Origin: Candidatus Latescibacterota bacterium
Lineage (GTDB): Bacteria; Latescibacterota; UBA2968
Direction of reading: 5' to 3'
Length of the DNA: 64,000 nucleotides
Assembly: GCA_965204745.1 (NCBI GenBank)
Contig: OZ242010.1
Location: 1,280,001-1,344,000 of the forward strand
The position numbers were made by a program, and so were the translations under genes. Below the pieces are notes generated by a model, which did not search any database, had not been told where the DNA came from, and saw nothing but the letters and a program-made list of their open reading frames with translations. Positions within the stretch are counted from its first letter, which is position 1. Every line of letters begins with the position of its first letter. Below, piece after piece: positions 7,563 to 63,648 of this stretch.

Positions 7563-7668
7563 CTCGCCTCTTACGTCTCGCCTCTTACGTCTTGCCTCTT
7601 GCCTCTTGCCTCTTGCGTCTCGCCTCTTGCCTCTTACGTCTTGCCTCTTACGTCTTGCCTCTTGCCTT
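7563..7668. repeat. Degenerate heptamer array, family B (CCTCTTG/CCTCTTA/CGTCTCG), ~15 units
   Basis: Read directly. Same family at ~18325-18352, 23430-23460, 28355-28372, 29868-29920, 30816-30966, 32327-32355, 32660-32730, 50760-50787, 60860-60952, 63535-63560. Confidence 0.9.
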
Positions 7669-14594: not shown

Positions 14595-16976
14595 TCATTC
14601 CATATCCTTCAGAATCCGCATGAACTGCGGATCGTTGGGGGCGAATTGGCGTGCTCTTTCCTTTGCGCGTTGCGCGGCTTCTTCTTTGCCCAGCACGGAC
14701 AGGGCTTCCCCCATGACTTGGTACGCACGCGCATGGTCCGGGGCTTGTTTCAGCACTTGTTCCAGCGTTGCCACCGCGCCGATGTGATTTTTGAGCCCGA
14801 TTTGAACAACTGCAAAGTTGAACTGGTGGTCGGCATTATCGGGCACTAGGGCCAACACCTTTTCGAGAATGTCGCGTGCCTCTGCAAACTTGCCCTGTCT
14901 CGAATACGTCGCCGCGAGGCTGTTGAGTATGGCGGCATCGTCCGGGGCGATCCACAAAGCGCGTTGATAAGCCTGCGCGGCCTCTGCCAAGTTGCCCGTT
15001 TGTGCGTGTGCCCTGCCCAATAAGTGCCGTGCCGTTGCGTTGGTGGAATCCAATGTCGTTGCGCGTTCTGCCGCATCAATCGCGTCCGCACAGTGTCCAA
15101 AGTGCAGGCATACCTCGCCCAAGCCGGTGAGAAATTCCACTTTTATCGGATTGAGCGCGACTGCCCGTCGTGCATGCGCGACCGCCGCAGAGTCCCTCTC
15201 CATTTTGGTGAGTGCTTGTCCCAACAAGTAATGCACGCGCTCATTGTGGGGAAAATCGTCCAAACTTTGGCGCAAGGCCGCGATGGCGTCATCCCATTTT
15301 TTTTGATTGTAGAGCGCGGTTCCCAATGCTTGATGGATGCGATAATACCGCGTTGGGCTTTGCGCGGCGGCTTTGCGGTACCAGGTTTCGGCGGCTACAT
15401 ACTCCTTCTGATGCAAGGCGCGTTGCCCTTTGCGGTAATACAACTCGCCTGTGATGGTGCGCGTGCCCATGCCGAGGGCGACGATTGCGAGCGCGGCGCA
15501 CACACACCCCATGCCGACCGCCACTTTGCGGTTTCTTATGGCAAAGAGACGCACGGGCTTGGGTTTTAATGCCCATATCAATCCCACCACGATCCAGAAA
15601 TGCAGGGCAGATGCGGGTTGTTGAAAATTGCTACTGAAAAATGCGTGCGTGAGCGTTGCCACCACAGAAGCCGCAAATCCCACTGCGATGAAGGAGACCT
15701 CGCCGCGCAGGTAACGCCGCATCAGGCCGACCAATACCCAGCCGAGTTGCAGCAGGAAAACCCCGAAAATCAGCAGGCCGATCAAGCCGGTTTCCGCCCA
15801 CATTTCCAAATATTCGTTGTGGACAGTGAACGCCATCAGGTCGCGTTCATTCCGTTTTTCCATGCGGTCTTTCACGAGCAGGCTTTCGCGGCCCGTGAAC
15901 TCGGGAATCGCAAACTCGTAATTGCCCAGGCCCACGCCCAGAACGGGGCGATCCAAAATGAGGCGCGCCGCATCTTTCCACAAATTCACGCGCTGCACGC
16001 TGGAATCGTCTGCCAACTGAATGGCGTCCACGCTTCGATACGCCACCCCGGCCCCGTATCTGTTGACCAAATGATTGACGAGGCGAACCCTGCCCTGCGC
16101 GTCCGCATCTCGTTGCCCGGTGTAAAACGCCGCGCCCACGCCTGCGAGGATCAAGATGGGGATCGCCAAATCCACCCATCGGCGTTCGGTCAGAAAGCAA
16201 CGCAACCATGCCATCCCGCTCAATATGAGCAAGCAGATCACCGCGCCGAGCCAGCCGCCCCTGCTGCTTAACACGATCAAATGACACGCGATGAAAAAAC
16301 AAGCCGTGCCAATGCCGACCCGCGCCCACGGTTTGCGTGTGACAAAAACCATGGCAACCGCGATGGGAAAGACCACATTGTAGTATTGCGCGGTAAAGTT
16401 GACATTGCCAATGGTGGAGATGGGCAAGTACCACGGCGCGCCAAAATGGTAAATGCCATTGTGTTGCAACCACCCGATCACTGCGACAATCCCGCTCGCG
16501 ACCACCATCGCGCCCGTTATTTTGTAGATGTGCTCAGAACTTCGCACGGTGTTGAAGATCAAAACCGCGAGTACAAAAAAACAGCCTTGTCGAAACAAGA
16601 CATCTAGGCCCTGCGCGATGTTCTGCGCCCAAAACAGAGACGCAAACCCCATCGCCAACAAGCCCAATAGCGCGTAGTACAACGGGGTCTCGACAACCGA
16701 CACTTCGCCATCCAAGACCATGCTCAACACCCACGCCCCCGCGAGCATCGCAATCAGCACTGTGGCGAAGATGAGTTTGGGCGTGCCGTATTCTTGCATG
16801 GCCGTCGTAACTATCAAGGGCACCACCAGCACCAACGCCTGAAACCCACGCACCATCATCAGCCGTACCCGCGCCCCCATCCATGTTGTGTTTGTGATCA
16901 TGAGTGATTCCATGTCAGTTGTCAGTCCTGTGTGCCCATCCCCGCCCTGCCTCTCCGTGTGCGTTTTGCCTTGCAT
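14595..16976 (-). CDS. O-antigen ligase (Wzy_C)-family membrane protein with C-terminal TPR repeats
   Basis: Many TM helices; STIGNVNF, SSRGGWLG, R.NLW..A...I.DRPVLGVGLGN, HNEYLE.WAETGLIG; TPR helices. Start uncertain. Confidence 0.85.
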   Translation of the reverse strand: MQGKTHTERQGGDGHTGLTTDMESLMITNTTWMGARVRLMMVRGFQALVLVVPLIVTTAMQEYGTPKLIFATVLIAMLAGAWVLSMVLDGEVSVVETPLYYALLGLLAMGFASLFWAQNIAQGLDVLFRQGCFFVLAVLIFNTVRSSEHIYKITGAMVVASGIVAVIGWLQHNGIYHFGAPWYLPISTIGNVNFTAQYYNVVFPIAVAMVFVTRKPWARVGIGTACFFIACHLIVLSSRGGWLGAVICLLILSGMAWLRCFLTERRWVDLAIPILILAGVGAAFYTGQRDADAQGRVRLVNHLVNRYGAGVAYRSVDAIQLADDSSVQRVNLWKDAARLILDRPVLGVGLGNYEFAIPEFTGRESLLVKDRMEKRNERDLMAFTVHNEYLEMWAETGLIGLLIFGVFLLQLGWVLVGLMRRYLRGEVSFIAVGFAASVVATLTHAFFSSNFQQPASALHFWIVVGLIWALKPKPVRLFAIRNRKVAVGMGCVCAALAIVALGMGTRTITGELYYRKGQRALHQKEYVAAETWYRKAAAQSPTRYYRIHQALGTALYNQKKWDDAIAALRQSLDDFPHNERVHYLLGQALTKMERDSAAVAHARRAVALNPIKVEFLTGLGEVCLHFGHCADAIDAAERATTLDSTNATARHLLGRAHAQTGNLAEAAQAYQRALWIAPDDAAILNSLAATYSRQGKFAEARDILEKVLALVPDNADHQFNFAVVQIGLKNHIGAVATLEQVLKQAPDHARAYQVMGEALSVLGKEEAAQRAKERARQFAPNDPQFMRILKDME

Positions 16977-17049
16977 CTGTGTTCTTAGGCGAAGCGGACG
17001 TTTTCGCGTCTTTTCGCTTTTCCCGTCTTCCCTCTTGTATCTTGGAAGT

Positions 17050-17240
17050 AAGGTTTAATTAGGTGTTGCGCCCTCGCATCGAGACAAGCCATCTTGATGC
17101 CCGGCTCGGGGAAGGCCGGTCCCTCTCGAAGGCGATGACCTTGTAGGTGAGATAGGCCCCCCGACCGCCGGGTCTATGCCGAAGCGTATCTAAGTCCCTT
17201 GAGGCTGCATATACAAGACCGGTAGACTTGGCGTCAATGG
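17050..17240 (+). ncRNA. Predicted IS110 bridge RNA (copy 1); boundaries approximate
   Basis: Target loop: TCCCTCT (17120-17126) equals left target+core; AGGTGAG (17145-17151) is the reverse complement of core+right target. Donor loop: AGCGTATCT (17183-17191) and ATACAAG (17211-17217). Confidence 0.82.
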
Positions 17241-17300
17241 TCGGGATCGAACTCGAGCGCACACCAGACCCTTACAAACCCCTCATCACAGGAGGCCCCC

Positions 17301-18308
17301 ATGTCGAAATCTCAACCCGCTTTTGCCGGCATTGATGTCCGTGCCCGCACGTTGTCCGTTGCCCTGTCCAGACCTGGACAAGTTGTCATGCAAGCGACCT
17401 TTGCCAATGATCCCCAAGCCCATAAGCGGTTGCTGAAGTGGCTCACCAAGGGCGGGCACATGGTCTCTGTCTGCCTTGAAGCGACCGGGCTTTACAGCTT
17501 GGGGGTGGCCTTGGCCTTGCATCGGCATCGCCACACAAAGGTCATGGTCGTCAATCCCAAAGCGATGAGCAAGTACGGTCAAGCCTGCATGCAACGAGCC
17601 AAGACGGATGCGAAGGATGCGTTGTTGATCATGGATTATGCCGAGCGCATGCCGTTTGTGCCTTGGCAAGCGCCGAGTGAGCAACGGCTCCAACTGCAAG
17701 CCCTCACCAGACGTATTGACCAACTCAAGCAGGAGATCATCCGCGAACAGAGCCGCAACCACGCGCAAAGCTACCACATCCGGAGCACACGGCGCATCGC
17801 ACGCGATATTCAGGTGAATATCCGACACCTCAAACGCCGGATTGCCTACTTGGAAAGCCAAGCCCTCGATCTCGTTTTGCACGATGAGACCCTCAAGCGC
17901 GCCTACCAACGCCTCTGCTCGACGCCTGGCATCGCACAAACGAGTGCCTTGCGGCTCTTGGCCGAGTTGACCCTTTTGCCAGAGGAGATGCAACCGCCCC
18001 AGTGGGTCGCACATGCAGGCCTGGATCCCAAACCCAAACAATCCGGAACCGCCAACCCACAAAGACGCATCTCGAAAACCGGGAATAAGTACCTCCGCCA
18101 TGCCCTCTATATGCCTGCCTGGGTGGCCAGCAGACACGAAGTCCATGTCAAAGCCTTCTATGACCAACTCATTGCCAGAGGCAAGAAACCTTTGCAGGCT
18201 ATCGTTGCGGTGATGCGAAAGTTGCTCCATTCAATCTGGGGCATGTTGCGGCATGACCAAGATTTTAAGGGCGAAAAATTCTATCGAATCACCCCGAAAA
18301 CCCCTTGA
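17301..18308 (+). CDS. IS110-family recombinase (DEDD RuvC-like plus Tnp serine domain)
   Basis: GIDV, LEATG, KTDAKDA, PGI, QSG, RISKTGNKYLR.ALY, A.VAVMRKLL. Confidence 0.95.
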   Translation: MSKSQPAFAGIDVRARTLSVALSRPGQVVMQATFANDPQAHKRLLKWLTKGGHMVSVCLEATGLYSLGVALALHRHRHTKVMVVNPKAMSKYGQACMQRAKTDAKDALLIMDYAERMPFVPWQAPSEQRLQLQALTRRIDQLKQEIIREQSRNHAQSYHIRSTRRIARDIQVNIRHLKRRIAYLESQALDLVLHDETLKRAYQRLCSTPGIAQTSALRLLAELTLLPEEMQPPQWVAHAGLDPKPKQSGTANPQRRISKTGNKYLRHALYMPAWVASRHEVHVKAFYDQLIARGKKPLQAIVAVMRKLLHSIWGMLRHDQDFKGEKFYRITPKTP

Positions 18309-18491
18309 CCTTTTAAGAGAGTATCTCACCTCTTCCCGCCTCTTGCCTCTCCCCATCATACTCAGAGTTTTGGGTTTCTTCAAGGATTTTTTGTACCGAA
18401 CGCGGCGCGGGTTTTGGGTTGCGATACGTTTTGGGTCGCGTTATTGTTTTGGCGGATGCTGTCTCCAATCTGATACAATGGGAGGATCGCT

Positions 18492-20954
18492 GTGGATGCG
18501 TCAATTACCGTCGGTTATGGGGATCGGGTGGGGATGGATGAGCGGCATGTTTATCCGCGCTATATGGGGTTTCGGCCAGCAGATGGTCAGGTGTGCGAGG
18601 TGAATCCGCCCAGGTTGAGTTGGCCGTTTGATCCGAATATCATCCCCCAAGGGCCTCTGCCGGCAGGGCGGAGGTTTAGGTTGCTGATTGGGCGCACGCC
18701 CGAGTTGAAAGATCCGGTGGTGGATGTGAAGCGGACGCCGTACAATTTTTACAACGCGCTGCCGGTCTTGAGGCCCGGGCGCGAGTGGTTCTGGCGAGTG
18801 ATTTACGATGTGGAAACGCCCGATGAGCAGGCGAGTGCGGTGAGGCGTTTTGAACTTTCGGCCGATGCGGTGGCATGGGATCGCACGGCGATAGAACGAG
18901 CGGTGAGCGGGCATCCGAGGATCATTTTCACGCCTGAGAATCTGCACGCGCTGCGCGAGTTTCAAGACGGGGATGTGGAATGTGCGGAAATTGCGAGGCA
19001 GGCGATTCGCCTTGCGGACGAGACCCTGAAGGCAGACTGGTTTGTGGATTTTCCAGCGTCTGATGCGGCTGTGGGGCCTTTTGCATTCCCGTATATCTAT
19101 CCCGAATACGCGCAGTTGCTCGCGAATATGGCTTTTGCGTATATGCTCACGGGCGATGAAAAGTACCTGGGGATGAAAAGCCGGTTGTTGACGATGGCGC
19201 GTTATGAACCCGGGGGATATTCCTCGCCCGAGGGCTTTGGGAAAGGCGAAAAGTTTTGTACGAAGATCACGGAGTTTATGGGCGTGTGCTTTGACTGGCT
19301 ATACCCCATTCTCTCTGACGATGAGCGCGAGACGATCATCCACGCGCTGGATTGGCGCATCGCGCATACCATGAATGAATATTCATGGTTGCACAAAGGC
19401 GAAGTTCGCGCAAAGGGCATTGCCGTGGCGCCGACTTCTCATGCGTGGGAAAATATCACTTGGACCCTGTCAGGCGCGCTGGCGGTTGCAGAGCATTCGC
19501 GTGTTGCGCGGCAATTTTTGGAACTCGGCCTGCACTATGTCACGGGCGTGGGGACTGGGTTTGGGCCGGACGAGGGATGGAACGAAGGCGTGTCTTACAG
19601 CACTTGGAAGTTCTATTCTTTGGTCGCCACGTCGCTCTACGTCGCGATGACCCTTCCGGACCTGCACTTGGAACGCAATCCGTTTTACCGGGGGATGGGG
19701 ACGTTTCTCTTGAATCTGGCACCCGTGGGGGTCGTGCGGCCCGCGTGGGGCGATATTGCGTTTCAGTATCGCTATCACGAGCGCGGGCAACACGCTTATC
19801 GCAGAAAGCTGGCCTATTTGACCGGCGATGGGCGCGTGTTGACCGCGTGGAAGGAGTGGAAACGGGTGTTGGCAACGGGCGAGGTGCAACCCTTGAACTT
19901 GGGAGAACCGAATATCGCCGAGGTCACGGATTACCCCCGCCCGTGGATCGAATACGCGCTGAAACACTTTTTTCCCGAGCCAAAGGCGGCATCCAAACCG
20001 CCGCGCACGCACTTCTCGCCGGTTGCCGGCTGGGCGATGGGCCATTCAGAGCCGCCGGAGAAGCTCGAGTCGTTCCGCCGGGGCGTGGGGTTCGTGTTCA
20101 CTTGCCGACCGCGTGGGGGATATAGCCACAGCCACAGGAGCAATGGCGGGTTCGAGTTATTTGCTTATGGAAAGACCATTGCCACGGGCGGGGGCAAGCG
20201 GAGCAACCGGGATCGCGTGTCGCGGTCGAGCCAGTCGCACAATGTGGTGTTGATCGATGGCGAAGGACAGCGCGAGGTGCCCGGATCGGCTGACTTGCCA
20301 AACGCGGGGCGCGTTGTGGGATGGAAAGAGACGCGGGAAATGGTGTACGTGTGCGGCGATGTGCGAAATGCCTATCTCGAGCAGGCCAATCTCGCGCGGT
20401 TTTACCGGCATTTCTCGTTCGTCAGGGATCGCTACTTTGTCGTGTTCGACGATCTCGCGCTCGCCTCGGGGACCGCGGTGTTTTCGTGGTTGTATCACGT
20501 TCAACCAGATGTGCCTGTGGCGATGTCGGAAGCCGGTTTCGCGTATGCTGTTGGGGATGTGCGGGTGCAGGTGCATCACTTCGGGGAGACCGGGCCGCTG
20601 AAGGTGGAGAATATGCGCGGCGAAAAAGCGTATCGCAATCCCATTACCGGTGCGGATTTGTACGGTGAAATTGAAGCCAAAGTGAAACATTCCAAAACAG
20701 AGGAAATTTGGAATGGCACGCCGCAGGTCCACAACAATCTCTGGTTATCGACCAAACCGCGCCGCGAAGCCAAATTTCTCGCGGTGATCGTGCCGCATCG
20801 GGAAGGCGAGCCCACGCCGCGCGTGCGAAAAATCGCGCCAGATGTGATCGGCGTGTCTCTGCGAGCGGGGATGGAAGATGTGATCGCCTTTGGAAAACCG
20901 CGGCAAGGCGCGTTTGCGAGCATTGATTACAAGGCGATGCGCGTGGCGGAGTGA
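18492..20954 (+). CDS. Heparinase II/III-like (DUF4962-type) polysaccharide lyase
   Basis: NPPRLSWP, HPRIIF, DEGWNEGVSY, SHSH.SNGGFELFAYG, SHNVVLIDGEGQ, WLYH. Confidence 0.75.
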   Translation: MDASITVGYGDRVGMDERHVYPRYMGFRPADGQVCEVNPPRLSWPFDPNIIPQGPLPAGRRFRLLIGRTPELKDPVVDVKRTPYNFYNALPVLRPGREWFWRVIYDVETPDEQASAVRRFELSADAVAWDRTAIERAVSGHPRIIFTPENLHALREFQDGDVECAEIARQAIRLADETLKADWFVDFPASDAAVGPFAFPYIYPEYAQLLANMAFAYMLTGDEKYLGMKSRLLTMARYEPGGYSSPEGFGKGEKFCTKITEFMGVCFDWLYPILSDDERETIIHALDWRIAHTMNEYSWLHKGEVRAKGIAVAPTSHAWENITWTLSGALAVAEHSRVARQFLELGLHYVTGVGTGFGPDEGWNEGVSYSTWKFYSLVATSLYVAMTLPDLHLERNPFYRGMGTFLLNLAPVGVVRPAWGDIAFQYRYHERGQHAYRRKLAYLTGDGRVLTAWKEWKRVLATGEVQPLNLGEPNIAEVTDYPRPWIEYALKHFFPEPKAASKPPRTHFSPVAGWAMGHSEPPEKLESFRRGVGFVFTCRPRGGYSHSHRSNGGFELFAYGKTIATGGGKRSNRDRVSRSSQSHNVVLIDGEGQREVPGSADLPNAGRVVGWKETREMVYVCGDVRNAYLEQANLARFYRHFSFVRDRYFVVFDDLALASGTAVFSWLYHVQPDVPVAMSEAGFAYAVGDVRVQVHHFGETGPLKVENMRGEKAYRNPITGADLYGEIEAKVKHSKTEEIWNGTPQVHNNLWLSTKPRREAKFLAVIVPHREGEPTPRVRKIAPDVIGVSLRAGMEDVIAFGKPRQGAFASIDYKAMRVAE

Positions 20955-21766
20955 TCGCGATTGAGGATATTTGCAATGCTGTCGAGGTAGGCTTTGAGAG
21001 ATAATCCGTGGCTTTGTGCCAAAATCTCTAAAGTGCGAACCCGCGTGCGTTCGCCCTTTTCAATTCTCCGTACCTGACGCTCTGAAAGCCCCGCAATATC
21101 GGTTTGTCTGAGGTTGTATTTTTTTCGCAATGCGGCAACGGCCTCTCCAAACCGGCTATCGTATATCAGTCTTTCTCGATCCTTTTTTTGACGCCACGCA
21201 ACATCCTTGACGTAGCGAATCGCATCCAGATCAAGATGCACATCTGCCTCGGGCCAAGCGATATAACTGCCCTCGCTGGAAATAAAAAATAAAGCGCGTT
21301 GCGCGATTGGAACGCGCTTTAGTGCGGGCAGTTCTTCAAAGTCAATTCTAAACAACGCATGGTTACAGGACATAACAAAGAGCGCGTTATCAATAACCTG
21401 TGCCGTGGCAATCAGTTGATCTGGACATCCCAGGCTCCAAGCCATTAACACGCGCTTTGGTACGTCTTTGTTAGAATGGACGAGAATTTGGCGGTTCATT
21501 TTCATTTTTGCCTCGTAAAGCATCTGGGGCAGAAACTGGACATTGTCATTTTCGCGAATAAAAAGGGTCCGAAGGCGATGGTGCTGATTTGCAACGCGTA
21601 CAAATTTAGCTACAGCGGTAAGGCCGGAAATTGAAGAGAGCACAAAAATATCCCGATATTTCATTTTTGCCCAATCCGGTTCCCTAAAAACATCGAAGGA
21701 ATGTGGAATGATGTCATCGCTATATGGGTCTTGCGCCCAAACGGCTATTCCCGCAGTCTTTGGCAT
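20927..21766 (-). CDS. DUF2442-like plus XRE-HTH protein with extra N-terminal domain (putative antitoxin)
   Basis: LPALKR....QR..F.ISSEGSYIAWPEADVHL, then LRQTDIAGLSERQVRRIEKG; GAGGAG RBS before ATG 21766. Confidence 0.7.
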   Translation of the reverse strand: MPKTAGIAVWAQDPYSDDIIPHSFDVFREPDWAKMKYRDIFVLSSISGLTAVAKFVRVANQHHRLRTLFIRENDNVQFLPQMLYEAKMKMNRQILVHSNKDVPKRVLMAWSLGCPDQLIATAQVIDNALFVMSCNHALFRIDFEELPALKRVPIAQRALFFISSEGSYIAWPEADVHLDLDAIRYVKDVAWRQKKDRERLIYDSRFGEAVAALRKKYNLRQTDIAGLSERQVRRIEKGERTRVRTLEILAQSHGLSLKAYLDSIANILNRDHSATRIAL

Positions 21767-21768
21767 GT

Positions 21769-22047
21769 TTAGCTCCTCGTCTTTACTTTGTTTTCCCACT
21801 CGACATAAAGTGCATCTCGGTGTTGAAGCACCCGATTTAAGATATCCCTTTGCTCTTTGCCCGAAGGCCCTTCTCCGCTACGGGGAAATTTCACATTGAA
21901 GACCAACTCGCGTTCTGTACAGAGACCGAAAAAAACGCGAATCTCCCATTTATCCGGTTTGCGTGCATGAAAATGAGGCGGTTCGTGATCCGAGGAATGG
22001 AACCACAGGTCTAGACCCGCCAAGCGAAAGCAATCCAATTTTCCCAA
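21769..22047 (-). CDS. DUF4160-family protein (putative toxin)
   Basis: FHSSDHEPPHFHA and C-terminal L..EW; TTG start 22047 with AGGAG RBS. Confidence 0.75.
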   Translation of the reverse strand: MGKLDCFRLAGLDLWFHSSDHEPPHFHARKPDKWEIRVFFGLCTERELVFNVKFPRSGEGPSGKEQRDILNRVLQHRDALYVEWENKVKTRS

Positions 22048-22553
22048 AATATCGCTCCTATTGGTTTGGAGAAATGTATTCAAAACCGGCCAATAAATCA
22101 ATACCGTAAATTCAAAAAATGTCCGATGCAACGCGGGTTGTGGCGAAATGTCACAACCCCGTTTTTTTGTGAAAATATTTATCGTTTTGAAACCTTTAAG
22201 TGCAAGGCGTGTATCTAAGACGTAACAGAGGATGGGTGGTACGCGTCGATTCGGAAGATGGCTGGCATAACGGACATGTTGCGATAGCCCAACTGTGAAA
22301 CTTTGTAACGACACCATGCGTTTAAGGGATGTGTCCACTCGTTGCTGATTCTGAACGGGGTTCAATCAGGGAAATCCTTGTCAGCCGCGTTCTGGGAGGG
22401 AAGATCATGGTCGCAAAATTGAAAATGCCGACAACTTGCGCCAAACCGGGCGAGGGATTTCGCTGTGCGGATGGGCATGACCGCGAGCGCGGCGAGAAAA
22501 CCATGGCCTCGAATGACGCTGTCGGAAAACGAAAAGAATGGGTGGGAGATGCG

Positions 22554-23414
22554 ATGGCAGACATGAAAACAGAGACGCGGGCCGCGGGCGATGCTTCGGT
22601 TCAGAGCTATCTGAGGGAGCTCCGCAAGTATCCGCCATTGAGCCGAGAAGAGGAACGGCAAACCCTGTGCTTGGCGAAAAAAGGCGACCGCACCGCGGCA
22701 GACAAGATCATCACGTCAAACTTGCGTTTTGTGGTCAGCGTCGCACTCGAATATCAGGGCCGGGGCGTGCCCCTCGCCGATTTGATCGCCGAGGGCAATG
22801 TCGGGCTGATGGAAGCCCTCAAGCGGTTTGATGAAAAGCGCGGGTTCAAGTTCATCAGCTATGCGGTTTGGTGGATTCGGCAGGGCATTCTCAACGCGCT
22901 CAAGCGCACATCAACCGTGGCGATGCCCGCAAATCGCCAGGAAGATATGGATCGCATGGCGCGTCGCTATGGGCAGATGAGCCAAGAGTTGGGCCGCGTG
23001 CCCACATTGGACGAAGTTGCCAGCGATATGCAGATCAGCCTCGAGCGCGCAGAGCGGGCCTTGCGCTGTGTGCGCCCAGACCTGTCGCTCTCTGCGCCCA
23101 TAGACGCGGAGGGCGAGCAGTCGCTCATGAATCTGCTCGAGGCCGATGCAGAGGATCCCGATCAGTTGGTCATAGCACGCGATCAGGCCGAGTTGGTGTC
23201 TCGATCTCTCACCGAGCTCGATCAGCGCGAGGCCGATATCATTCGCGCCTATTTTGGGCTTGAGGGGCATGAGCGCGAGAACCTGAGCGAAATCGGTCGC
23301 GCTTTGGGCCTGACCCGAGAACGCATTCGCCAGATTCGCAACCGCGCGCTGTTCAAGCTCCAGCGATATTTTCGGCGCGAAGTGCCGGGGAGCAAGGGGC
23401 AAGATTTGGTCTGA
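22554..23414 (+). CDS. RNA polymerase sigma factor, sigma70 family (RpoD/RpoS-like, lacking region 1.1)
   Basis: YLRELRKYPPLS.EEE, NLRFVVSVA, DLIAEGNVGL, KFISYAVWWIRQ, LTRERIRQI. Start uncertain (22503-22563). Confidence 0.9.
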   Translation: MADMKTETRAAGDASVQSYLRELRKYPPLSREEERQTLCLAKKGDRTAADKIITSNLRFVVSVALEYQGRGVPLADLIAEGNVGLMEALKRFDEKRGFKFISYAVWWIRQGILNALKRTSTVAMPANRQEDMDRMARRYGQMSQELGRVPTLDEVASDMQISLERAERALRCVRPDLSLSAPIDAEGEQSLMNLLEADAEDPDQLVIARDQAELVSRSLTELDQREADIIRAYFGLEGHERENLSEIGRALGLTRERIRQIRNRALFKLQRYFRREVPGSKGQDLV

Positions 23415-23548
23415 TTAGAAGAAAAAGGCGGGTGAGAGGTAAGAGGCAAGACGGGAGAAGCCACCCAACAACCCCGAAACCCGATGCACTTCGTTGGGTC
23501 GCTTGAGAGATGGGTAGTTGTACCCCGATTCGCATATATGGAGGCACG

Positions 23549-24586
23549 ATGAACAAACGCGATTTTCTGAAAACAGCCGGCATTGCCGCCGCGGCCACAG
23601 CGGTCAACGCGCCTGCGGTGATCGCGCAATCCAAGTCCCCGATCCGCTGGCGCCTGCAAACGTATGCCGGCGCCTCGCTGGCAGAGCATGTGGTCAAGCC
23701 GGCGATTGACTCGTTCAACGAGATCGCCAATGGCGACATGACGATTGAGCTGTTCACTGCGGATCAACTCGTGCCCACGCCCGACCTGTTCAACGCGCTA
23801 CAAAAGGGCATACTCGACGCGGTGCAAAGCGACGACGATTCCATGGCGTCGCCCGCGGATGTGGCGGTGTTCGGCGGGTACTTCCCGTTTGCCACGCGCT
23901 ACAGCTTGGATGTGCCGGTGCTGTTCCACCAGTACGGTTTGAAGGATATTTGGGAAGAAGCCTACGCCGAGATCGACGGCGTGACGTGGTTGAGCGCGGG
24001 GTCGTGGGATCCATGCCATTTCAACACGGTCGATCCCATCCGCAGTTTGGACGATCTCAAGGGCAAGCGCGTGTTCACCTTTCCAACCGCGGGCAAATTC
24101 CTGTCCCGTTTCGGCATCGTGCCCGTCACCCTGCCGTGGGACGAGGTCAAAGACGCGGTGCGAACCGGCGCGTTGGACGGCTTGGCTTGGTCCGGCATCA
24201 CCGAGGCGTACACCGTCGGCTGGGCAGACGTGACCCGGTACTTTTTGACCAACAACATCTCCGGCGCGTGGTGCGGGTCGTTTTTCGCCAACGCGGATTC
24301 GTGGCACGCGCTACCGGCGCACTTGCGGGAATTGTTCCGCGTTTGCATGGACAGTTCTCATTATTATCGCCAACACTGGTACTGGGGCGGCGAGGCCCGC
24401 CAGCGCGTTGCGGGCACAAAGCTCGAACTCACGTCCATCCCGGACGCTGAGTGGCGAGAAGTGGAAGCCGAAGCCCTCAAGTTCTGGGATGAGATCGCCC
24501 AAACCAGCCCCCGCGCCGCACGGGTCATCGACATCTTCAAACAATACAACGCGACCATGACAAAAGCCGGCCCTCCCTATCGCTAA
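23549..24586 (+). CDS. TRAP transporter solute-binding protein (DctP/TakP-like) with Tat-like signal
   Basis: MNKRDFLK signal; WRLQTY, ADQLVP..DLF.A, I.SLDDLKGKR. Confidence 0.85.
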   Translation: MNKRDFLKTAGIAAAATAVNAPAVIAQSKSPIRWRLQTYAGASLAEHVVKPAIDSFNEIANGDMTIELFTADQLVPTPDLFNALQKGILDAVQSDDDSMASPADVAVFGGYFPFATRYSLDVPVLFHQYGLKDIWEEAYAEIDGVTWLSAGSWDPCHFNTVDPIRSLDDLKGKRVFTFPTAGKFLSRFGIVPVTLPWDEVKDAVRTGALDGLAWSGITEAYTVGWADVTRYFLTNNISGAWCGSFFANADSWHALPAHLRELFRVCMDSSHYYRQHWYWGGEARQRVAGTKLELTSIPDAEWREVEAEALKFWDEIAQTSPRAARVIDIFKQYNATMTKAGPPYR

Positions 24587-24610
24587 ACCCAACGGCTTAT
24601 AGGGGGTGTT

Positions 24611-26116
24611 ATGGCAAGAAAAACGACGAATGGGACAGCGATAATGGCGAAGGCGAATTGGGCGAATCGCACGATCTTTGAGGGCGACAACCTCGACATT
24701 CTGCGGGGCATGAACGCCGCGAGTGTGGATTTGGTGTATCTCGATCCGCCGTTCAACTCGAATCGCAATTACGCTGCGCCGATTGGTTCGGCAGCGGCCG
24801 GTGCGGCTTTCAAAGACGCTTGGACCTTGAGTGATGTTGACGAGGCTTGGCACGGGGAAATTGCCGAGCGCGATGAGCGGTTGTACAAGGTGATTGACGC
24901 GGCCGGGGCGGTGCATGGTAAGTCGATGAAGTCCTATTTGATTTTTATGGCTGTTCGGATTTTGGAATTGCACAGCGTATTGAAGCCGACGGGGAGTCTC
25001 TGGTTGCATTGCGATCCGACGGCGAGTCATTATCTCAAACTCGCGATGGACAGTATTTTGGGAAAAGACAATTTTCGGAATGAGGTTATTTGGAAGCGCA
25101 CGTCGTCCAAGACCGCGAGCCGTAAATTGCCCGCGGTGCATGATGTGTTGTTGTGGTATGCAGGGGGCGATGAGCATACCTATCACAAGGGCTATGGGCC
25201 GCATGATCCCGGATACGTCGAGAAGTTTTATCGCTATGAAGACGAGCATGGGCGGTATCGGACGGGTGATTTGACAGCGGCGGGCGTGAGCAATGGCGAT
25301 TCGGGTCAGCCGTGGCGTGGGATCGACCCTTCGGTAATCGGGCGACATTGGGGCGCGCCGGGGACTTTTCCCGAACATGTGGCAAAACCGGGGGATTGGA
25401 AAAATATGGATACGCGGGCCAAACTCGACTATCTCGACGCCAACGGCCTCGTCCATTGGCCCCAAAAGCAGGGCGGTGTCCCGGCCTTCAAGCGGTATTT
25501 GAGCACGTCTAAGGGGGCTATCCTGACGGACGTCCTGACGGACATTCCGCCTTTGTCTGCCCGATCCAAAGAGAAGACGGGCTATCCCACACAGAAACCG
25601 CTTGCGTTGCTGGAACGGGTTATCAAAGCGAGTAGCAATCCGGGGGATGTTGTATTGGACCCATTTTGCGGTTGCGCGACGACGTGTGTAGCTGCGGAGA
25701 TGTTGGGGCGCCAGTGGGTTGGGATAGACCTAAGCCCATTGGCTGGCAAAATTGTCGTTGAGCGATTGCAAAAGGTATCCGATGAAGATGGACTGCTGAA
25801 AGGCGGCAAACTCCCGAAAGTGATCCACAGAACAGACCTTCCGCGCCGCACGGACATCGAGGAATTGCCCGATTACAGGACGCACAAGCATGTGTTGTAC
25901 GGCGAGCAAGCGGGGAATTGCAAGGGCTGTGGCGTTCACTTCCCATTTCAAAATATGACCGTTGACCACATCACGCCGCGTGCAAAAGGTGGAGGAGATC
26001 ACAAAGAGAATCTGCAACTGCTTTGCAACAGTTGCAACGCTCGCAAGGGAAGCGGCACTCAAGCCGAGTTGATCGCGCGCTTGCGCGAGGCGGGGATTTT
26101 GTATCGCACGGTTTAG
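24611..26116 (+). CDS. Beta-class N6/N4 DNA methyltransferase fused to a C-terminal HNH endonuclease
   Basis: YLDPPF (motif IV) precedes YPTQKP..LL and LDPFCGCATT (motif I); C-terminal CKGC...VDHITP.AKGG.DH.ENLQLLCNSCN. Confidence 0.88.
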   Translation: MARKTTNGTAIMAKANWANRTIFEGDNLDILRGMNAASVDLVYLDPPFNSNRNYAAPIGSAAAGAAFKDAWTLSDVDEAWHGEIAERDERLYKVIDAAGAVHGKSMKSYLIFMAVRILELHSVLKPTGSLWLHCDPTASHYLKLAMDSILGKDNFRNEVIWKRTSSKTASRKLPAVHDVLLWYAGGDEHTYHKGYGPHDPGYVEKFYRYEDEHGRYRTGDLTAAGVSNGDSGQPWRGIDPSVIGRHWGAPGTFPEHVAKPGDWKNMDTRAKLDYLDANGLVHWPQKQGGVPAFKRYLSTSKGAILTDVLTDIPPLSARSKEKTGYPTQKPLALLERVIKASSNPGDVVLDPFCGCATTCVAAEMLGRQWVGIDLSPLAGKIVVERLQKVSDEDGLLKGGKLPKVIHRTDLPRRTDIEELPDYRTHKHVLYGEQAGNCKGCGVHFPFQNMTVDHITPRAKGGGDHKENLQLLCNSCNARKGSGTQAELIARLREAGILYRTV

Positions 26117-26224
26117 GGGCAGGCTGTTGAAAAAAAGTGGTGATTGCTGACCGTCTTGACAATGGCGAGCAAATCCCGTCTCAACAAAAAAAAGAAAAAG
26201 CCCTCCTGTTTTTGCAGAAGGGCT

Positions 26225-26333
26225 TCAATTTTTTGAAGGAACGTTACCGAGACGAGGCGGTTTCTCGCCCGGCTGGAGTTGGTCGACCAGTTCCAAGCCG
26301 CATACGCGCTTCGCGACTCGAAATTGTGGTCAT
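26225..26333 (-). pseudogene. Frameshifted Phd/YefM-like antitoxin remnant
   Basis: MTTISSREARMRLG, then ELVDQLQPGEK in a shifted frame; ATGA-coupled to the upstream gene. Confidence 0.4.
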
Positions 26334-26611
26334 GGTAGATGCTCCAAAGATGAATGTTTGACGAGGGATTCGGCCATTGTCACCTCTCGAATGGCGTTCC
26401 AATTGATCACAGCAACCCACAGATTTTCTTCTTTTGAGTATTCAACCATGCCATCAACTTCCAAATCTTCGCTGTAAAGAACCAGCGATTGCCCTTGTCG
26501 TAAAGAGATTTTCTGGCATGCCAAGTCTTCCACAGTGCCAACGCAGTTCAAGCGCAACCTGCCTTGTGCATCTGCGTTGTGAAAATCGGCGAACACACTT
26601 GGTTTTTTCAT
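26330..26611 (-). CDS. Small acidic hypothetical protein (candidate antitoxin/immunity)
   Basis: 93 aa, FADFHNAD.QGRLRL...W.A.I.W; ATGA overlap with the upstream gene; lower GC. Confidence 0.7.
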   Translation of the reverse strand: MKKPSVFADFHNADAQGRLRLNCVGTVEDLACQKISLRQGQSLVLYSEDLEVDGMVEYSKEENLWVAVINWNAIREVTMAESLVKHSSLEHLP

Positions 26612-26946
26612 TTTTTTGTCTCCCGTGCAGGATTTGAAATTGTTGGCGTAAAAAGTTGACTGGCTTGATCGGGCGTCAGTCCAGTCAACGTCGCATGGTA
26701 AGGGCTTCTGCCAGAAGTCCGTACCACATTCCCGCCAGCTTTTCGGATTTCACCAGCGGTTGTTACGCCAACTTGTCCATGCGGAATTGTCCTTGCCAGT
26801 TCAGAGACGGAAACATCTTCGCCACTTTCTACGGATACCCCAGTAACCCCACTTGGATGCGTTCCGCTTCCGCGGCGAATGTCTTCTGGGCGGTTTTGAC
26901 CACCGCGAACAACAAAGGCATCATCAGAGATTTTTGCATATTCCAT
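26608..26946 (-). CDS. Small hypothetical protein with ADP-ribosyltransferase-like pattern (candidate toxin)
   Basis: 112 aa; VVRGG...GVSV...PYHATL gives R, S and H in predicted strands. Confidence 0.6.
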   Translation of the reverse strand: MEYAKISDDAFVVRGGQNRPEDIRRGSGTHPSGVTGVSVESGEDVSVSELARTIPHGQVGVTTAGEIRKAGGNVVRTSGRSPYHATLTGLTPDQASQLFTPTISNPARETKK

Positions 26947-27079
26947 TGCGCTTTGAAAAATATTACTCTCCTCGTCATTTCGGCGAAATCAAGTCCGTTC
27001 CCCAAGCTATCGGCAATTAAATTAGTGCAGACATTGCCTTGGGGCGGTGGGGCGGTCTCGCCTCTTGTATGTTGTCAGA

Positions 27080-27270
27080 AAGGGTTAATTTAGGTGTTGC
27101 GCCCTCGCATCGAGACACGCCATCTTGATGCCCTGCTCGGGGAAGGCCGGCGCCTCTTGAAGGCTATGACCTTGTAAGTAAGATAGGCCCCCCGACCGCC
27201 GAGTTGATACCGAAGAGTATCTAAGTCCATTGAGGCTGCATATACAAGACCGGTAGACTGGGCAAACAGT
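27080..27270 (+). ncRNA. Predicted IS110 bridge RNA (copy 2); boundaries approximate
   Basis: Target guides CGCCTCT (27151-27157) and AAGTAAG (27176-27182); donor guides AGAGTATCT (27214-27222) and ATACAAG (27242-27248). Confidence 0.82.
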
Positions 27271-27331
27271 CGGGACGCGAACCCGAGCGCACACCAGACC
27301 CCTTCCCCACCCCTCATCACAGGAGGCCCCG

Positions 27332-28339
27332 ATGTCGAACACTCAACCCGCTTTTGCCGGCATTGATGTCCTTGCCCACACGTTGTCCGTTGCCCTGTCC
27401 AGACCCGGACAAGGGGGCATGCAAGCCACCTTTGACAACGCGCCTCGGGCGCACAAGCACCTGTTGAAGTGGCTCACCCAGGGCGGGCGCATGGTCTCGG
27501 TCTGTCTCGAAGCGACCAGGCGTTCTAGCTTGGGGGTGGCCTTGGCCTTGCATCAGCATCGCTGTACGCAGGTCATGGTCGTCAATCCCAAAGCGATGAG
27601 CAAGTACGCTCACGCCTGCATGCAACCGGCAAAGACGGATGCGAAGGATGCGTTGTTGATCCGCGATGATGCCGAGCGCATGCCCTTTGTGCCTTGGCAA
27701 GCGCCGAGCGAGCACCGGTGCCAACTGCAAGCCCTCACCAGACGCATTGACCAACTCAAGCAGGAGATCATCCGCGAACAGAGCCGCAGCCACGCGCAGA
27801 GCGACCCCATCCGGAGCACACGGCGCATCGCACGCGATATTCAGGTGAATATTCGACCCCTCAAACGCCGCATTGCCTACTTGGAAGACCAAGCCCTCAA
27901 ACTCGTTTTGCACGACGAGACTCAAAAGCGTGCCTACCAGCACCTCTGCTCGGTGCCCGGTATCGCCCAAACGAGTGCCTTGCGACGCTTGACCGAGCTG
28001 GCCTCCTTGCCAGACGCGATGGAACCGCCCCAATGGGTCGCTCATGCAGGCCTGGATCCCAAACCCAAACAATCCGGGATGACCAACCCGGAAAGACGCA
28101 TCTCGAAAACCGGGAATAAGTACCTCCGCCATGCCCGCTCTATGCCTGCCTGGATGGCCAGCAGACACGAAGTCCATGTCAAAGCCTTCTATGACCAACT
28201 CATTGCCCGCGGCAAGAAACCTTTGCAGGCTATCGTTGCGGTGATGCGAAAATTGCTCCATGCGATCTGGGGCATGTTGCGGCATGACCAAGATTTTGAG
28301 GGCGAGAAATTCTATCGAATCGCCCCGCAATCCCCTTGA
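27332..28339 (+). CDS. IS110-family recombinase, full length but with several non-conservative substitutions
   Basis: DEDD and QSG retained; EATG>EATR, MDY>RDD and ALYM>ARSM relative to copy 1. Confidence 0.9.
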   Translation: MSNTQPAFAGIDVLAHTLSVALSRPGQGGMQATFDNAPRAHKHLLKWLTQGGRMVSVCLEATRRSSLGVALALHQHRCTQVMVVNPKAMSKYAHACMQPAKTDAKDALLIRDDAERMPFVPWQAPSEHRCQLQALTRRIDQLKQEIIREQSRSHAQSDPIRSTRRIARDIQVNIRPLKRRIAYLEDQALKLVLHDETQKRAYQHLCSVPGIAQTSALRRLTELASLPDAMEPPQWVAHAGLDPKPKQSGMTNPERRISKTGNKYLRHARSMPAWMASRHEVHVKAFYDQLIARGKKPLQAIVAVMRKLLHAIWGMLRHDQDFEGEKFYRIAPQSP

Positions 28340-28442
28340 CCTTTAAGAGAGTATCTTACCTCTTGCCTCTTACTTGGGATAGGGCTTGCGGTAGGGTTGT
28401 GGGGGTAATCCGCGCAATCCCCTAATCCGTTTAATCCGCGAT

Positions 28443-29846
28443 TCAAACACATATTGAGGCGATGAAGTGCCTTTCGCGTTGGCTTTGGCACACGCGCTGC
28501 TCGATGGCTTCTGGGTCGCCCCAAATTTCCAAGAGCCGGGCGCGCATGGCGTCGCGTATTTCGCGGTGTTCGGCGGACTCCGATAGGTCGTTAAATTCCC
28601 CGGGGTCTTCTGCGATGTTGAACAATTCGGGCGCGTCTCCCAAACTGAGGTTGAGTTTGTAATCGCCCTGTTTGAGCATGGCCACGGGACGGAGAACCCC
28701 GTGCGCGAGGTATTCGCAAAAGGCTTCGTCTTTCCAGGTTTCGGCGTCGCCCGCGATCAGGGGCAAGAGGCTGTCGCCATCGAGGGGGGCGATTTCTTTG
28801 GACGCGCCGCTCATGTCGAGGATGGTGGCGACGAGATCGACTAAGGAGACATTTTGTGGGACGCGCAATCCCCCCGGAATTTGCCCGGGCCAGACGATCT
28901 GAAGGGGCACGCGAGCAGAGGCTTCATACATGTTGGACTTGCGCCACATGCCGTGTTCGCCATTCATCTCCCCGTGGTCAGATGTATGGATGATGATGGT
29001 GTTGTCGCGTTGTGCGGTTTCTTCAAGCGCGTCGATGAGCCTGCCGATTTTTTCATCCAAATACGTGATGAGGCCGTAATAACCCGCACGGGCGCGGCGC
29101 ACGAGGTGCTCTGGAAAATCGACCAACCCAAACATCGCGCGCAGGCGTTTGTACACCGGGTGCATGTTTTCGAGATGGCCCTCGGGGATTTCGGGCATGT
29201 CGATTTGATCGCGGGGATACAGATCCCAAAATCGCCGGGGGACGACGAGCGGGAAATGCGGCGCGATGAACCCCACGTTGAGGCACCACGGGCGGTCTTT
29301 GTCCGCGGCGGCTTTGATATAGGCGAGCGCGGCTTCTTCGACTCGATCATCCACTTCTATGGACGTGGTCGTGCCCGGCCCGGCTTCTGCCACACCCCCC
29401 CACGGCTTTTTGGCTTTCACAATGCCCGCTTCCCAATTTGCCGCGCCGTGCGGAACGCCGTTTTTCGTCCACAATTCAGCGTGCAGGTCGCGGGCGAGTT
29501 GCGTGCGGAACCCGTGCAATTGGTCCGGGCCGCAAAAGTGCTGCTTGCCGGAGAGGACCACATCGTAGCCCACGTTTCGCAAGCGATGCGCCCATGTGAC
29601 CGTGTCCGACGACATGGGAAAGCCATTATCATACGTGCCAATGCGATAGATGTACCGCCCGGTCATGAAAGACATGCGCGACGGCCCGCAAATCGGCGAG
29701 TTGCAATACGCATTGTCAAACGTGACCCCCATTTCGGCCATGCGTTCCATGTTGGGCGATTGCACCAGCGAATGCCCATACACGCTGCTGTATTGCGGCG
29801 CGTGCTCGTCAGACATGATGATGAGGATATTGGGTTGATCAGCCAT
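28443..29846 (-). CDS. Sulfatase, choline-sulfatase-like
   Basis: MSDEH, CGPSRMSFMTG, GKQHF.GPDQLHGF, PHFP, SDHGEM.GEHG.W.K. Confidence 0.88.
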   Translation of the reverse strand: MADQPNILIIMSDEHAPQYSSVYGHSLVQSPNMERMAEMGVTFDNAYCNSPICGPSRMSFMTGRYIYRIGTYDNGFPMSSDTVTWAHRLRNVGYDVVLSGKQHFCGPDQLHGFRTQLARDLHAELWTKNGVPHGAANWEAGIVKAKKPWGGVAEAGPGTTTSIEVDDRVEEAALAYIKAAADKDRPWCLNVGFIAPHFPLVVPRRFWDLYPRDQIDMPEIPEGHLENMHPVYKRLRAMFGLVDFPEHLVRRARAGYYGLITYLDEKIGRLIDALEETAQRDNTIIIHTSDHGEMNGEHGMWRKSNMYEASARVPLQIVWPGQIPGGLRVPQNVSLVDLVATILDMSGASKEIAPLDGDSLLPLIAGDAETWKDEAFCEYLAHGVLRPVAMLKQGDYKLNLSLGDAPELFNIAEDPGEFNDLSESAEHREIRDAMRARLLEIWGDPEAIEQRVCQSQRERHFIASICV

Positions 29847-30793: not shown

Positions 30794-30966
30794 GGTGTCG
30801 TTCCTTTCAATAAAAGGTGAGAGGTGAGAGGCAAGACGGGAGAAGACCTACACGCACTGCTCGCCTTTCAACGACCTCTCGCCAGTTGTACCCCTTTTGT
30901 GCCTTTTGTGCCTCTTGTGGCTAAACTTCCATCTCACCTCTCGCCTCTCACCTCTCGCCTCTCGCT

Positions 30967-63361: not shown

Positions 63362-63648
63362 ATCGCGGATTAAACGGATTACGCAGATGAACGCGGATTG
63401 GGTTGGCAGGTAGAACAGAGGGCGCAGAAAATACAGACGCCGCAAGTGGGCAGAGGACGCGGATTGGGCAACGCAGGTGGGACAGAGAATGCAGAAGGCA
63501 CGAAGGACATAGCGGCGGTAGGGCGGTGGGGGGATCTCACCTCTTACCTCTTGCCTCTTACTTGGGGATAGGGCTTGCGAGGGGTGGATAGGTAATCCGC
63601 GCAATCTCCAAATCCGCGAAATCCGCGATTCAGACAAATGGACCATCC

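Follow-up and report, generated by a model that had tools for sequence, protein, structure and literature searches.

Two IS110-group insertion sequences of a Candidatus Latescibacterota bacterium with predicted bridge RNAs whose guides follow variants of a host heptamer repeat

Introduction

IS621 of E. coli is an insertion sequence (IS) of the IS110 group that recombines under the guidance of a bridge RNA. For this element, the DNA strands to which the two guides of each RNA loop pair have been published, and a promoter formed at the junction of the excised element has been described for IS110 elements (Durrant et al., 2024, PMC11208160). The handshake guides A81/U82 of the IS621 RNA, the donor positions 6-7 (A, T) and the CT core are documented as well, and non-canonical G.T pairs were seen in the IS621 structure. 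Natural covariation of guides and targets was reported over 5,511 pairs, and natural guides were compared in bins with the motifs of their targets (Durrant et al., 2024, PMC11208160); a 2026 preprint presents a survey of 32,190 bridge RNA loci. ISPpu10 was reported to need a stem-loop of the target DNA in addition (10.64898/2026.03.19.712850). Here we describe two IS110-group elements, copy 1 and copy 2, in a stretch of 64,000 nt from a Candidatus Latescibacterota bacterium (GCA_965204745.1, OZ242010.1, positions 1,280,001-1,344,000). This whole stretch is called the window, and coordinates without a contig name are positions within it.

We are highly confident that both elements belong to one IS621-like family of the IS110 group that transposes by bridge RNA-guided recombination. 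This reading was drawn from the anatomy of the elements, homology, guide-target covariation and site occupancy, and from these we infer transcription, RNA binding and catalysis.

Results

The two elements have a length of 1291 bp each and lie on the forward strand at positions 17036-18326 (copy 1) and 27066-28356 (copy 2). Their boundaries were derived from the alignment of copy 1 with copy 2 and from 52 full-length genomic copies. Both start with TGTAT and end with AGAGTAT-CT, and a second CT is located directly 5′ of the element. The CT core was found at both junctions in all 52 copies. In copy 1, the left end comprises 265 nt (17036-17300) and the right end 16 nt plus the core after the stop codon at 18308. 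This long non-coding left end and short right end represent the layout of the IS110 group, which is reversed in the IS1111 group.

Copy 1 is preceded by the left target arm CTTCCCT (17027-17033) and the core CT (17034-35). The last five bases of this arm plus CT recur within the left end as the left target guide TCCCTCT (17120-26). The guide is part of a putative target-binding loop module (17114-17158, forward strand), which was delimited by consensus folds, coordinates and guide-target matches and consists of GGCC (17114-17), the left target guide, AAGG (17129-32), CCTT (17139-42), the right target guide AGGTGAG (17145-51), the handshake bases AT (17152-53) and a closing GGCC (17155-58). On the other side of the element (right end AGAGTAT 18318-24, CT 18325-26), the core together with the right target arm CACCT (18327-31) is the exact reverse complement of AGGTGAG. 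Copy 2 shows the same arrangement on the forward strand. Its left target arm CTCGCCT (27057-63) with CT (27064-65) matches the left target guide CGCCTCT (27151-57) exactly, the right target guide AAGTAAG (27176-82) lies beyond the AAGG/CCTT hairpin flanked by both guides, and the right end (AGAGTAT 28348-54, CT 28355-56) is followed by the right target arm TACCT (28357-61). The 5′ guide thus reads in the same sense as the left target followed by CT, and the 3′ guide is reverse complementary to CT followed by the right target; the strand scheme published for IS621 is the same.

A first-pass annotation made from the letters of the DNA had named these strings, and all of them were recovered in place in both copies. 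Its observation that the copies differ at the guide positions was borne out by the alignment, in which the left ends were otherwise about 90% alike. The further claim that removal of each element restores a heptamer array was correct on a modest scale, with 3 + 1 in-phase units around copy 1 and 1 + 2 around copy 2; these arrays are short and degenerate.

To collect all copies, the closed 5.48-Mb genome was searched with copy 1 by blastn, which gave 75 hits, among them the 52 full-length copies. These represent 15 distinct sequences and four guide classes. Subfamily A1 has 30 identical and 7 near-identical members, and the 30 identical copies indicate recent activity. Subfamily A2 has 8 identical members with 96% identity to A1. 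The B lineage contains four copies that are 97-99.8% alike, and copy 2, its most diverged member, is 94-95% identical to these four, of which three share its guide class and the other is c216675m. Copy 1 is 97% identical to A2. The singleton c602782p is a mosaic of a B-lineage-like portion, comprising the 5′ part of its left end and its guides, and a remainder similar to A2 and copy 1. All copies carry the scaffold GGCC, 5′ guide, AAGG/CCTT hairpin, 3′ guide, AU, GGCC; in c5198949m, the left end contains one additional nucleotide. At least three in-phase CT-rich heptamer units surround 50 of the 52 copies. We also considered that other IS110 families might be aimed at other heptamer classes; this was ruled out, as all 57 PF01548 matches in the genome fall in copies or fragments of the same element. 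At one locus (G000:C1:1121591-1124180), an A2 and an A1 copy stand head to tail with a single heptamer TACCTCT between them, one having inserted beside the end of the other.

The guide classes differ in their insertion sites. Class A (45 copies) has the guides CCCCTCT and AGGTAAG; 20 of its members are located at the exactly matching junction CCCCT-CT-TACCT and 17 at CCCCT-CT-TGCCT, which involves a single rU.dG pair. The other class A sites have the right arms TACTT (n = 1) or TGCCC (n = 1), the junction TACCT-CT-TACCT (n = 4), or CT-CCCGT (n = 2). Class B (guides CGCCTCT and AAGTAAG) has four members including copy 2. The right arm is TACTT, an exact match, in three of them, copy 2 with TACCT being the exception, and the left arm is CGCCT in three and CACCT, with an rG.dT position, in the fourth. 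Class C is represented by copy 1 only, whose guides TCCCTCT and AGGTGAG fit its site TCCCT-CT-CACCT at 12 of 12 positions. Two copies form class D (TGCCTCT and AAGTAAG), one of which is located at TACCT-CT-TACTT with one rG.dT position. Altogether, 40 mismatches were counted among 624 guide-target positions (52 copies × 12). When the targets were shuffled, the mean was 60.3 and the minimum 47, and none of 20,000 shuffles reached 40.

The occupancy of potential sites depended strongly on the match to the guides. For class A, 20 of 25 sites without mismatch were occupied (80%), compared to 18 of 237 with one mismatch (7.6%), 5 of 1,130 with two (0.4%) and 2 of 3,144 with three (0.06%). Sites with rU.dG were occupied in 17 of 82 cases versus 20 of 25 perfect sites, which suggests an apparent tolerance of rU.dG. 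About 1,751 junctions of the general form are free in the genome, and the commonest junction, TGCCT-CT-TGCCT, is free at all of its 241 sites. Among the class A copies, four combine a perfect right arm with two mismatches in the left arm, and two combine a perfect left arm with three mismatches in the right arm.

The element was found in 4 of 41 related genomes searched. From the relatives, 6 of 8 matches in G016, 9 of 18 matches in G018 and 3 copies in G036 were analyzed. The 70 copies of the four genomes showed 81 mismatches versus a mean of 198.7 after shuffling, and none of 20,000 shuffles was as good. For the nine guide classes of the present genome (G000), G016, G018 and G036, only 6 of 362,880 permutations fitted as well. 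The covariation anticipated over all genomic copies was thus found for the 52 copies here and also in the relatives.

In G016 (80-82% protein identity), AGAAAAG or a variant of it takes the guide position of the same scaffold, and the sites lie outside heptamer arrays. The right arm CT-TTTCT was exact in four of six copies and had one and two mismatches in the other two, and the left arms had 0-3 mismatches. In G018 (76%), the 5′ guide is CTCGCCTCT, with no mismatch in four copies, one G.T in four and two mismatches in one. The 3′ guide, shorter by one base, matches no more than CT + CCC, in eight of nine copies. In G036 (53%), the guide ACGTTAG fits CT-AACGT in all three copies and the left guide is exact in one of them. 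Two of these three copies (L034, L038 and L042) have AT instead of CT at the left junction, and the left target guide also ends with AT, while the right junction and the right guide retain CT.

Further loci were inspected by eye. In L061, from a metagenome-assembled genome of Deltaproteobacteria (48%), and in L063-L066, from genomes of the same phylum (54-63%), the guides match the respective flanks with 0-2 mismatches per 12 positions; L067-L069 were left out. L066 (G097) has the changed donor arm AGAAAAC-CT, and its donor guide is changed likewise to GGAAAACC, which from the letters of this locus we read as natural donor reprogramming. The search of genome contigs for related loci yielded two distant loci only, L061 and L062, and the latter was dropped as a bridge RNA relative since no clear scaffold was visible.

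Consensus folds of the left ends were calculated with RNAalifold for 13 and for 10 sequences, L038 being entered without its target loop in the latter. Both gave the same two modules of stem, internal loop and hairpin. In the first, a GGCC/GGCC stem surrounds the target loop with the AAGG/CCTT hairpin; in the second, a stem of about 22 pairs surrounds the donor loop with an AGUC/GGCU hairpin. The folds contain 4 (13 sequences) and 10 (10 sequences) compensatory pairs. In copy 1, the putative donor-binding loop module with its long stem and AGTC/GGCT hairpin covers positions 17160-17245 (forward strand). It contains the left donor guide AGCGTATCT (17183-91), the right donor guide ATACAAG (17211-17) and a handshake A (17218). 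An additional 5′ stem-loop of the bridge RNA (17076-17100, forward strand) is only weakly predicted, as it appeared in the single-sequence fold and was absent from the consensus folds. The donor guides of copy 2, AGAGTATCT (27214-22) and ATACAAG (27242-48), on the forward strand, are both exact to its own ends, and these guides match the own AGAGTAT-CT-TGTAT in 51 of the 52 copies, copy 1 having one mismatch. The AU after the right target guide can pair with T7/A6 of the donor, and the A after the right donor guide with T7 of the target.

A -35-like hexamer TTGACC is located in the right end of copy 1 and overlaps the stop codon (18305-18310, forward strand), and a -10-like hexamer TATCTT is located in the left end (17038-17043, forward strand). 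The two would be paired only when the element is circular. At the inferred circle junction of all 52 copies, TTGACC is followed by a spacer of 17-18 nt and TATCTT or TATGTT, as judged by consensus match only. For copy 1 in its integrated form, no promoter-like site was present upstream of the left end. Two stubs of the left end with 59-61 nt (G000:C1:950646-950704 and 2089406-2089466) are broken off precisely at CCAT-CT-TGAT, an internal sequence similar to the donor core; they may be products of aberrant recombination at a pseudo-donor site.

The recombinase genes of copy 1 (17301-18308) and copy 2 (27332-28339) are located on the forward strand and encode proteins of 335 amino acids with PF01548 (DEDD_Tnp_IS110) followed by PF02371 (Transposase_20), both above the curated cut-offs. 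The E-values were 2.8e-23 and 1.3e-19 for copy 1 and weaker for copy 2 (3.4e-17 and 2.3e-15). The closest solved structures in the PDB were the recombinases of ISCro4 (E 2.5e-38) and IS621 (E 1e-35), matched by phmmer over nearly the full length. Both copies and all subfamilies of this genome have D12, E60, D103, D106 and S258. Judged by position and motif, these residues probably are the equivalents of the catalytic set D11/E60/D102/D105/S241 of IS621 (Durrant et al., 2024, PMC11208160; Hiraizumi et al., 2024, PMC11208158). The recombinase of copy 2 has odd substitutions at conserved positions (GLY to RRS, ALY to ARS) and retains the catalytic D, E, D, D and S. Given these substitutions, copy 2 may be decaying, with its frame and catalytic residues still intact. 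A copy in G016 (L040) has LKAP in place of the family motif LEAT and may be inactive because the catalytic Glu is replaced.

The heptamer repeats were characterized with TRF, which found 1,399 tandem arrays in the genome, 533 with a period of 7 and 228 with a period of 14. The period-7 arrays fall into two main groups, CAGTDGT/GTCAGTT and the CT-rich NNCCTCT; examples of period-7 arrays in the window are located at 16917-16935, 7593-7613, 30935-30962 and 63538-63558. Compared to each of the 40 relatives searched, this genome is about 20-fold richer in the CAGTDGT group, arrays of which occur in 11 of 20 genomes of the same genus. This spread across the genus marks heptamer arrays as a trait of the host. 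The idea that the element is a general maker of heptamer arrays was rejected, since 10 of the 11 genomes with CAGTDGT arrays lack it at the threshold searched, G016 being the one that has it. Only two genomes had abundant CT-rich arrays, G000 with 579 pattern matches and G018 with 276, against at most 2 matches in the other 39 genomes, and these two are exactly the genomes whose elements target CT-rich arrays. The coincidence may be due to shared ancestry, permissiveness or a causal link.

The sites of the B lineage resemble a dispersed short repeat composed of GGGYGGTGGG, 3-4 heptamers and TTGGGGA (e.g., 27030-27065 and 28357-28400). Among the matches listed, the flanks of this lineage are alike for about 70 nt on the right, and two left flanks for about 200 nt. 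There are 25 exact B-type target sites that are unoccupied.

Both copies in the window are intergenic and lie in an ordinary chromosomal neighbourhood. Copy 1 is flanked by genes for a Wzy_C/TPR protein and a heparinase-like protein, and copy 2 by a small open reading frame and a sulfatase gene. Another reading frame of 501 codons (24611-26116, forward strand) encodes an N6/N4 DNA methylase domain fused to a C-terminal HNH endonuclease domain. In the X1, X2, X4 and X6 contigs (16000-29500), the summed depth of the element was roughly 6-70 times that of the flanks, depending on the run, which is in line with a high copy number in these samples. One contig each in X4 and X6 skips 27062-28354 (1291 bases) and looks like an empty copy 2 site. 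This was not counted as evidence, because the shorter side comprises just 21 letters and a dispersed repeat makes up the flanks; the contigs possibly show an unoccupied paralogous site.

Discussion

The recombinase family, the two-loop RNA, the strand scheme and the covariation of guides and targets all agree with the predictions of the bridge RNA reading that are accessible to computation. According to the mechanism that we propose, the element would be excised as a circle, in which the junction of right end (RE), CT and left end (LE) would rebuild a sigma-70-type promoter. From this promoter, the left end would be transcribed into an RNA of roughly 200 nt. AGAGTATCT and ATACAAG in the donor loop would pair with both strands of the AGAGTAT-CT-TGTAT junction, and the target loop would recognize a 12-base junction between two specific variants of the host heptamer NNCCTCT, i.e., CCCCT-CT-TACCT for class A, CGCCT-CT-TACTT for class B and TCCCT-CT-CACCT for class C. 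The DEDD/Ser recombinase would then swap strands at the CT core. Point changes in both guides would have retargeted the subfamilies to other unit junctions.

Several results weigh against this reading. Seven of the 45 class A copies have two or three mismatches to their sites. The class D copy c602782p is located at the kind of site used by copy 1 and shows three mismatches to its own guides; possibly it was placed in trans by the RNA of copy 1, or its left end was converted later. The right arm of copy 2 has one A.C mismatch. Because the guide of its subfamily fits TACTT, the right-hand site of three of the four members, this 6/7 match is an imperfect site or a later change rather than a flaw of the model. 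In copy 1, the donor guide AGCGTATCT has one mismatch to the own right end (AGCGTAT versus AGAGTAT). Donor mismatches of this kind are described as poorly tolerated (Durrant et al., 2024, PMC11208160), and copy 1 may be impaired given this mismatch and its status as a singleton. With respect to the RNA, the covariation energy terms were small (-0.74 and -0.33 kcal/mol for the 13- and 10-sequence folds), and the single-sequence fold was no better than that of shuffled sequences (z -1.12; 30 of 200 shuffles equal or better). The structure therefore rests on conservation and a few compensatory pairs among related sequences. A scan of 16500-29000 against Rfam 15 with E-values up to 1 gave no match, which may only reflect that the family is not curated there. 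Finally, the copies are kin, and the permutation figures therefore overstate their independence. Since kinship inflates these figures, the occupancy of sites is more telling.

The occupancy data bear directly on the idea that the recombinase, or the shape of CT-rich repeat DNA, leads to heptamer arrays in general and that guide complementarity is incidental. All targets resemble NNCCT-CT-NNCCT, so that any CT-rich segment of the left end would match them partly. However, insertions favor the guide-matched junction (20 of 25) over the commonest one (0 of 241) despite 1,751 free junctions, the same scaffold with the guide AGAAAAG is associated with CT-TTTCT sites outside heptamer arrays in G016, and the class-level permutation test gave 6 of 362,880. 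We consider general array recognition very improbable. It is scarcely credible, too, that the match arose after insertion by rewriting of the guides from the flanks, e.g., by conversion. This would suit copy 1, a singleton with a 12/12 fit that has no parent with the same guides among the 52 full copies. Yet 30 copies are identical throughout although the flanks of class A vary (right TACCT, TGCCT, CCCGT; left CCCCT, TACCT); guides therefore do not adapt to the flank, and the guides for both strands would each need a separate rewriting.

The repetitive nature of the flanks, with the stretches shared by B-lineage copies (about 70 nt right, about 200 nt in two left flanks), could also suggest that the copies multiplied through segmental duplication or homologous recombination of arrays instead of site-specific transposition. 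Against this, the flank similarity consists of short repeat stretches of at most 210 nt among the matches listed, every copy ends precisely at TGTAT and AGAGTAT-CT, and the B-lineage sites resemble a dispersed short repeat with 25 exact copies that are free of an insertion; such a spread is exceedingly unlikely. A different question is whether guides are used predominantly in trans, so that the RNA of any copy can place any other. If so, a copy that fits its own guide would only tell which RNA was abundant at the time of the move. Action in trans is documented for the bridge RNA of IS621 (Durrant et al., 2024, PMC11208160), the donor ends AGAGTAT-CT-TGTAT are common to all classes, and c602782p occupies a site that fits the guide of copy 1 instead of its own. 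On the other hand, class A sites harbor none of the seven non-A copies and exact class B or C sites none of the 45 class A copies, and the promoter exists only in the circle, which favors the RNA of the circle itself. The argument from class separation is weakened by the greater age of the B-lineage copies (94-99.8% alike), which perhaps moved before class A expanded. Overall, we regard predominant action in trans as unlikely, though it deserves to be kept in mind.

Because the dominant class fills 20 of its 25 perfect sites, one could imagine that guide diversification was driven by the exhaustion of landing sites, with one or two guide changes opening other heptamer junctions. We put this forward tentatively and with more doubt than conviction; if it were true, the repeat arrays would constitute a partitioned set of safe landing pads, and the near-perfect class separation despite a shared donor would show that in nature a circle uses the RNA from its own junction promoter, i.e., a preference for action in cis. 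In a stronger version, recombinase activity between heptamer units may help CT-rich arrays to spread.

The value of the system lies in a natural dataset, in which one closed genome contains 52 copies with four variants of the target loop on one scaffold and one shared donor, next to about 1,800 near-cognate sites that are 1-3 bases off. It provides a natural curve of mismatch tolerance, including the apparent tolerance of rU.dG, candidates for half-matched off-target events, and a natural case in which the joint change of guides and targets is unusually clear. Moreover, it may serve as a test bed for the use of bridge RNA in cis versus trans and for guide evolution, and as a compact orthologue with 7 + 7 target pairing and ready variant guides for studies of specificity.

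Our analysis suggests that the mechanism is an already known one, as every feature of IS621-like elements that is testable by computation was found here. The first-pass annotation had proposed a new orthologue family whose guides track variants of the host repeat. The tracking held, whereas the novelty was overstated, since guide-target covariation has already been published (PMC11208160). A similarity to the IS621 donor, which it had also stated, could not be confirmed, as the donor strings are absent from the main texts of PMC11208160 and PMC11208158. A narrow literature search turned up no description of IS110 elements inserted in heptamer arrays, nor of guide variants that share a single genome.

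With IS621, as far as it is described in the reports cited above, the elements share a recombinase with a DEDD RuvC-like and a Tnp_20 domain and the same pattern of catalytic residues, a long RNA-encoding left end, a very short right end, the CT core and a promoter split across the circle junction. Further common features are an RNA of two loops in which the 5′ guide is directed to the bottom and the 3′ guide to the top strand, with overlap at the core, A/U handshake bases after the right target guide, and the use of host repeats as targets. The homology to the IS621 protein is distant (phmmer E 1e-35), and the likeness was judged here from protein and layout. Likewise, the ISCro4 recombinase (PDB 9t56) is the best match among solved structures (E 2.5e-38, residues 7-325) in a comparison of proteins only. 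Unlike the natural IS621 guides as reported, the right target guide pairs with seven bases (four in IS621) and the left one with seven (nine in IS621). The target is a junction of tandem heptamer units instead of a repetitive extragenic palindromic (REP) element, and several guide variants exist within one genome. The class A copies with one matching arm resemble the half-match off-target insertions of IS621 outlined in 10.64898/2026.08.31.748434; this is a resemblance only, to which no pathway can be assigned.

According to the available descriptions, ISPpu9 and ISPpu10 of Pseudomonas putida (PMC12288879; 10.64898/2026.03.19.712850) are also IS110 elements with many copies in a conserved intergenic host repeat. 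Their targets are REP or hairpin-bearing repeats, whereas the elements described here reside in unstructured CT-rich heptamer arrays, where no need for anything more than the 12 target bases was apparent, none having been tested for. What is particular to the latter is the heptamer junction as target, the 7 + 7 pairing, the coexistence of guide variants on one scaffold, and the near-saturation of perfect sites.

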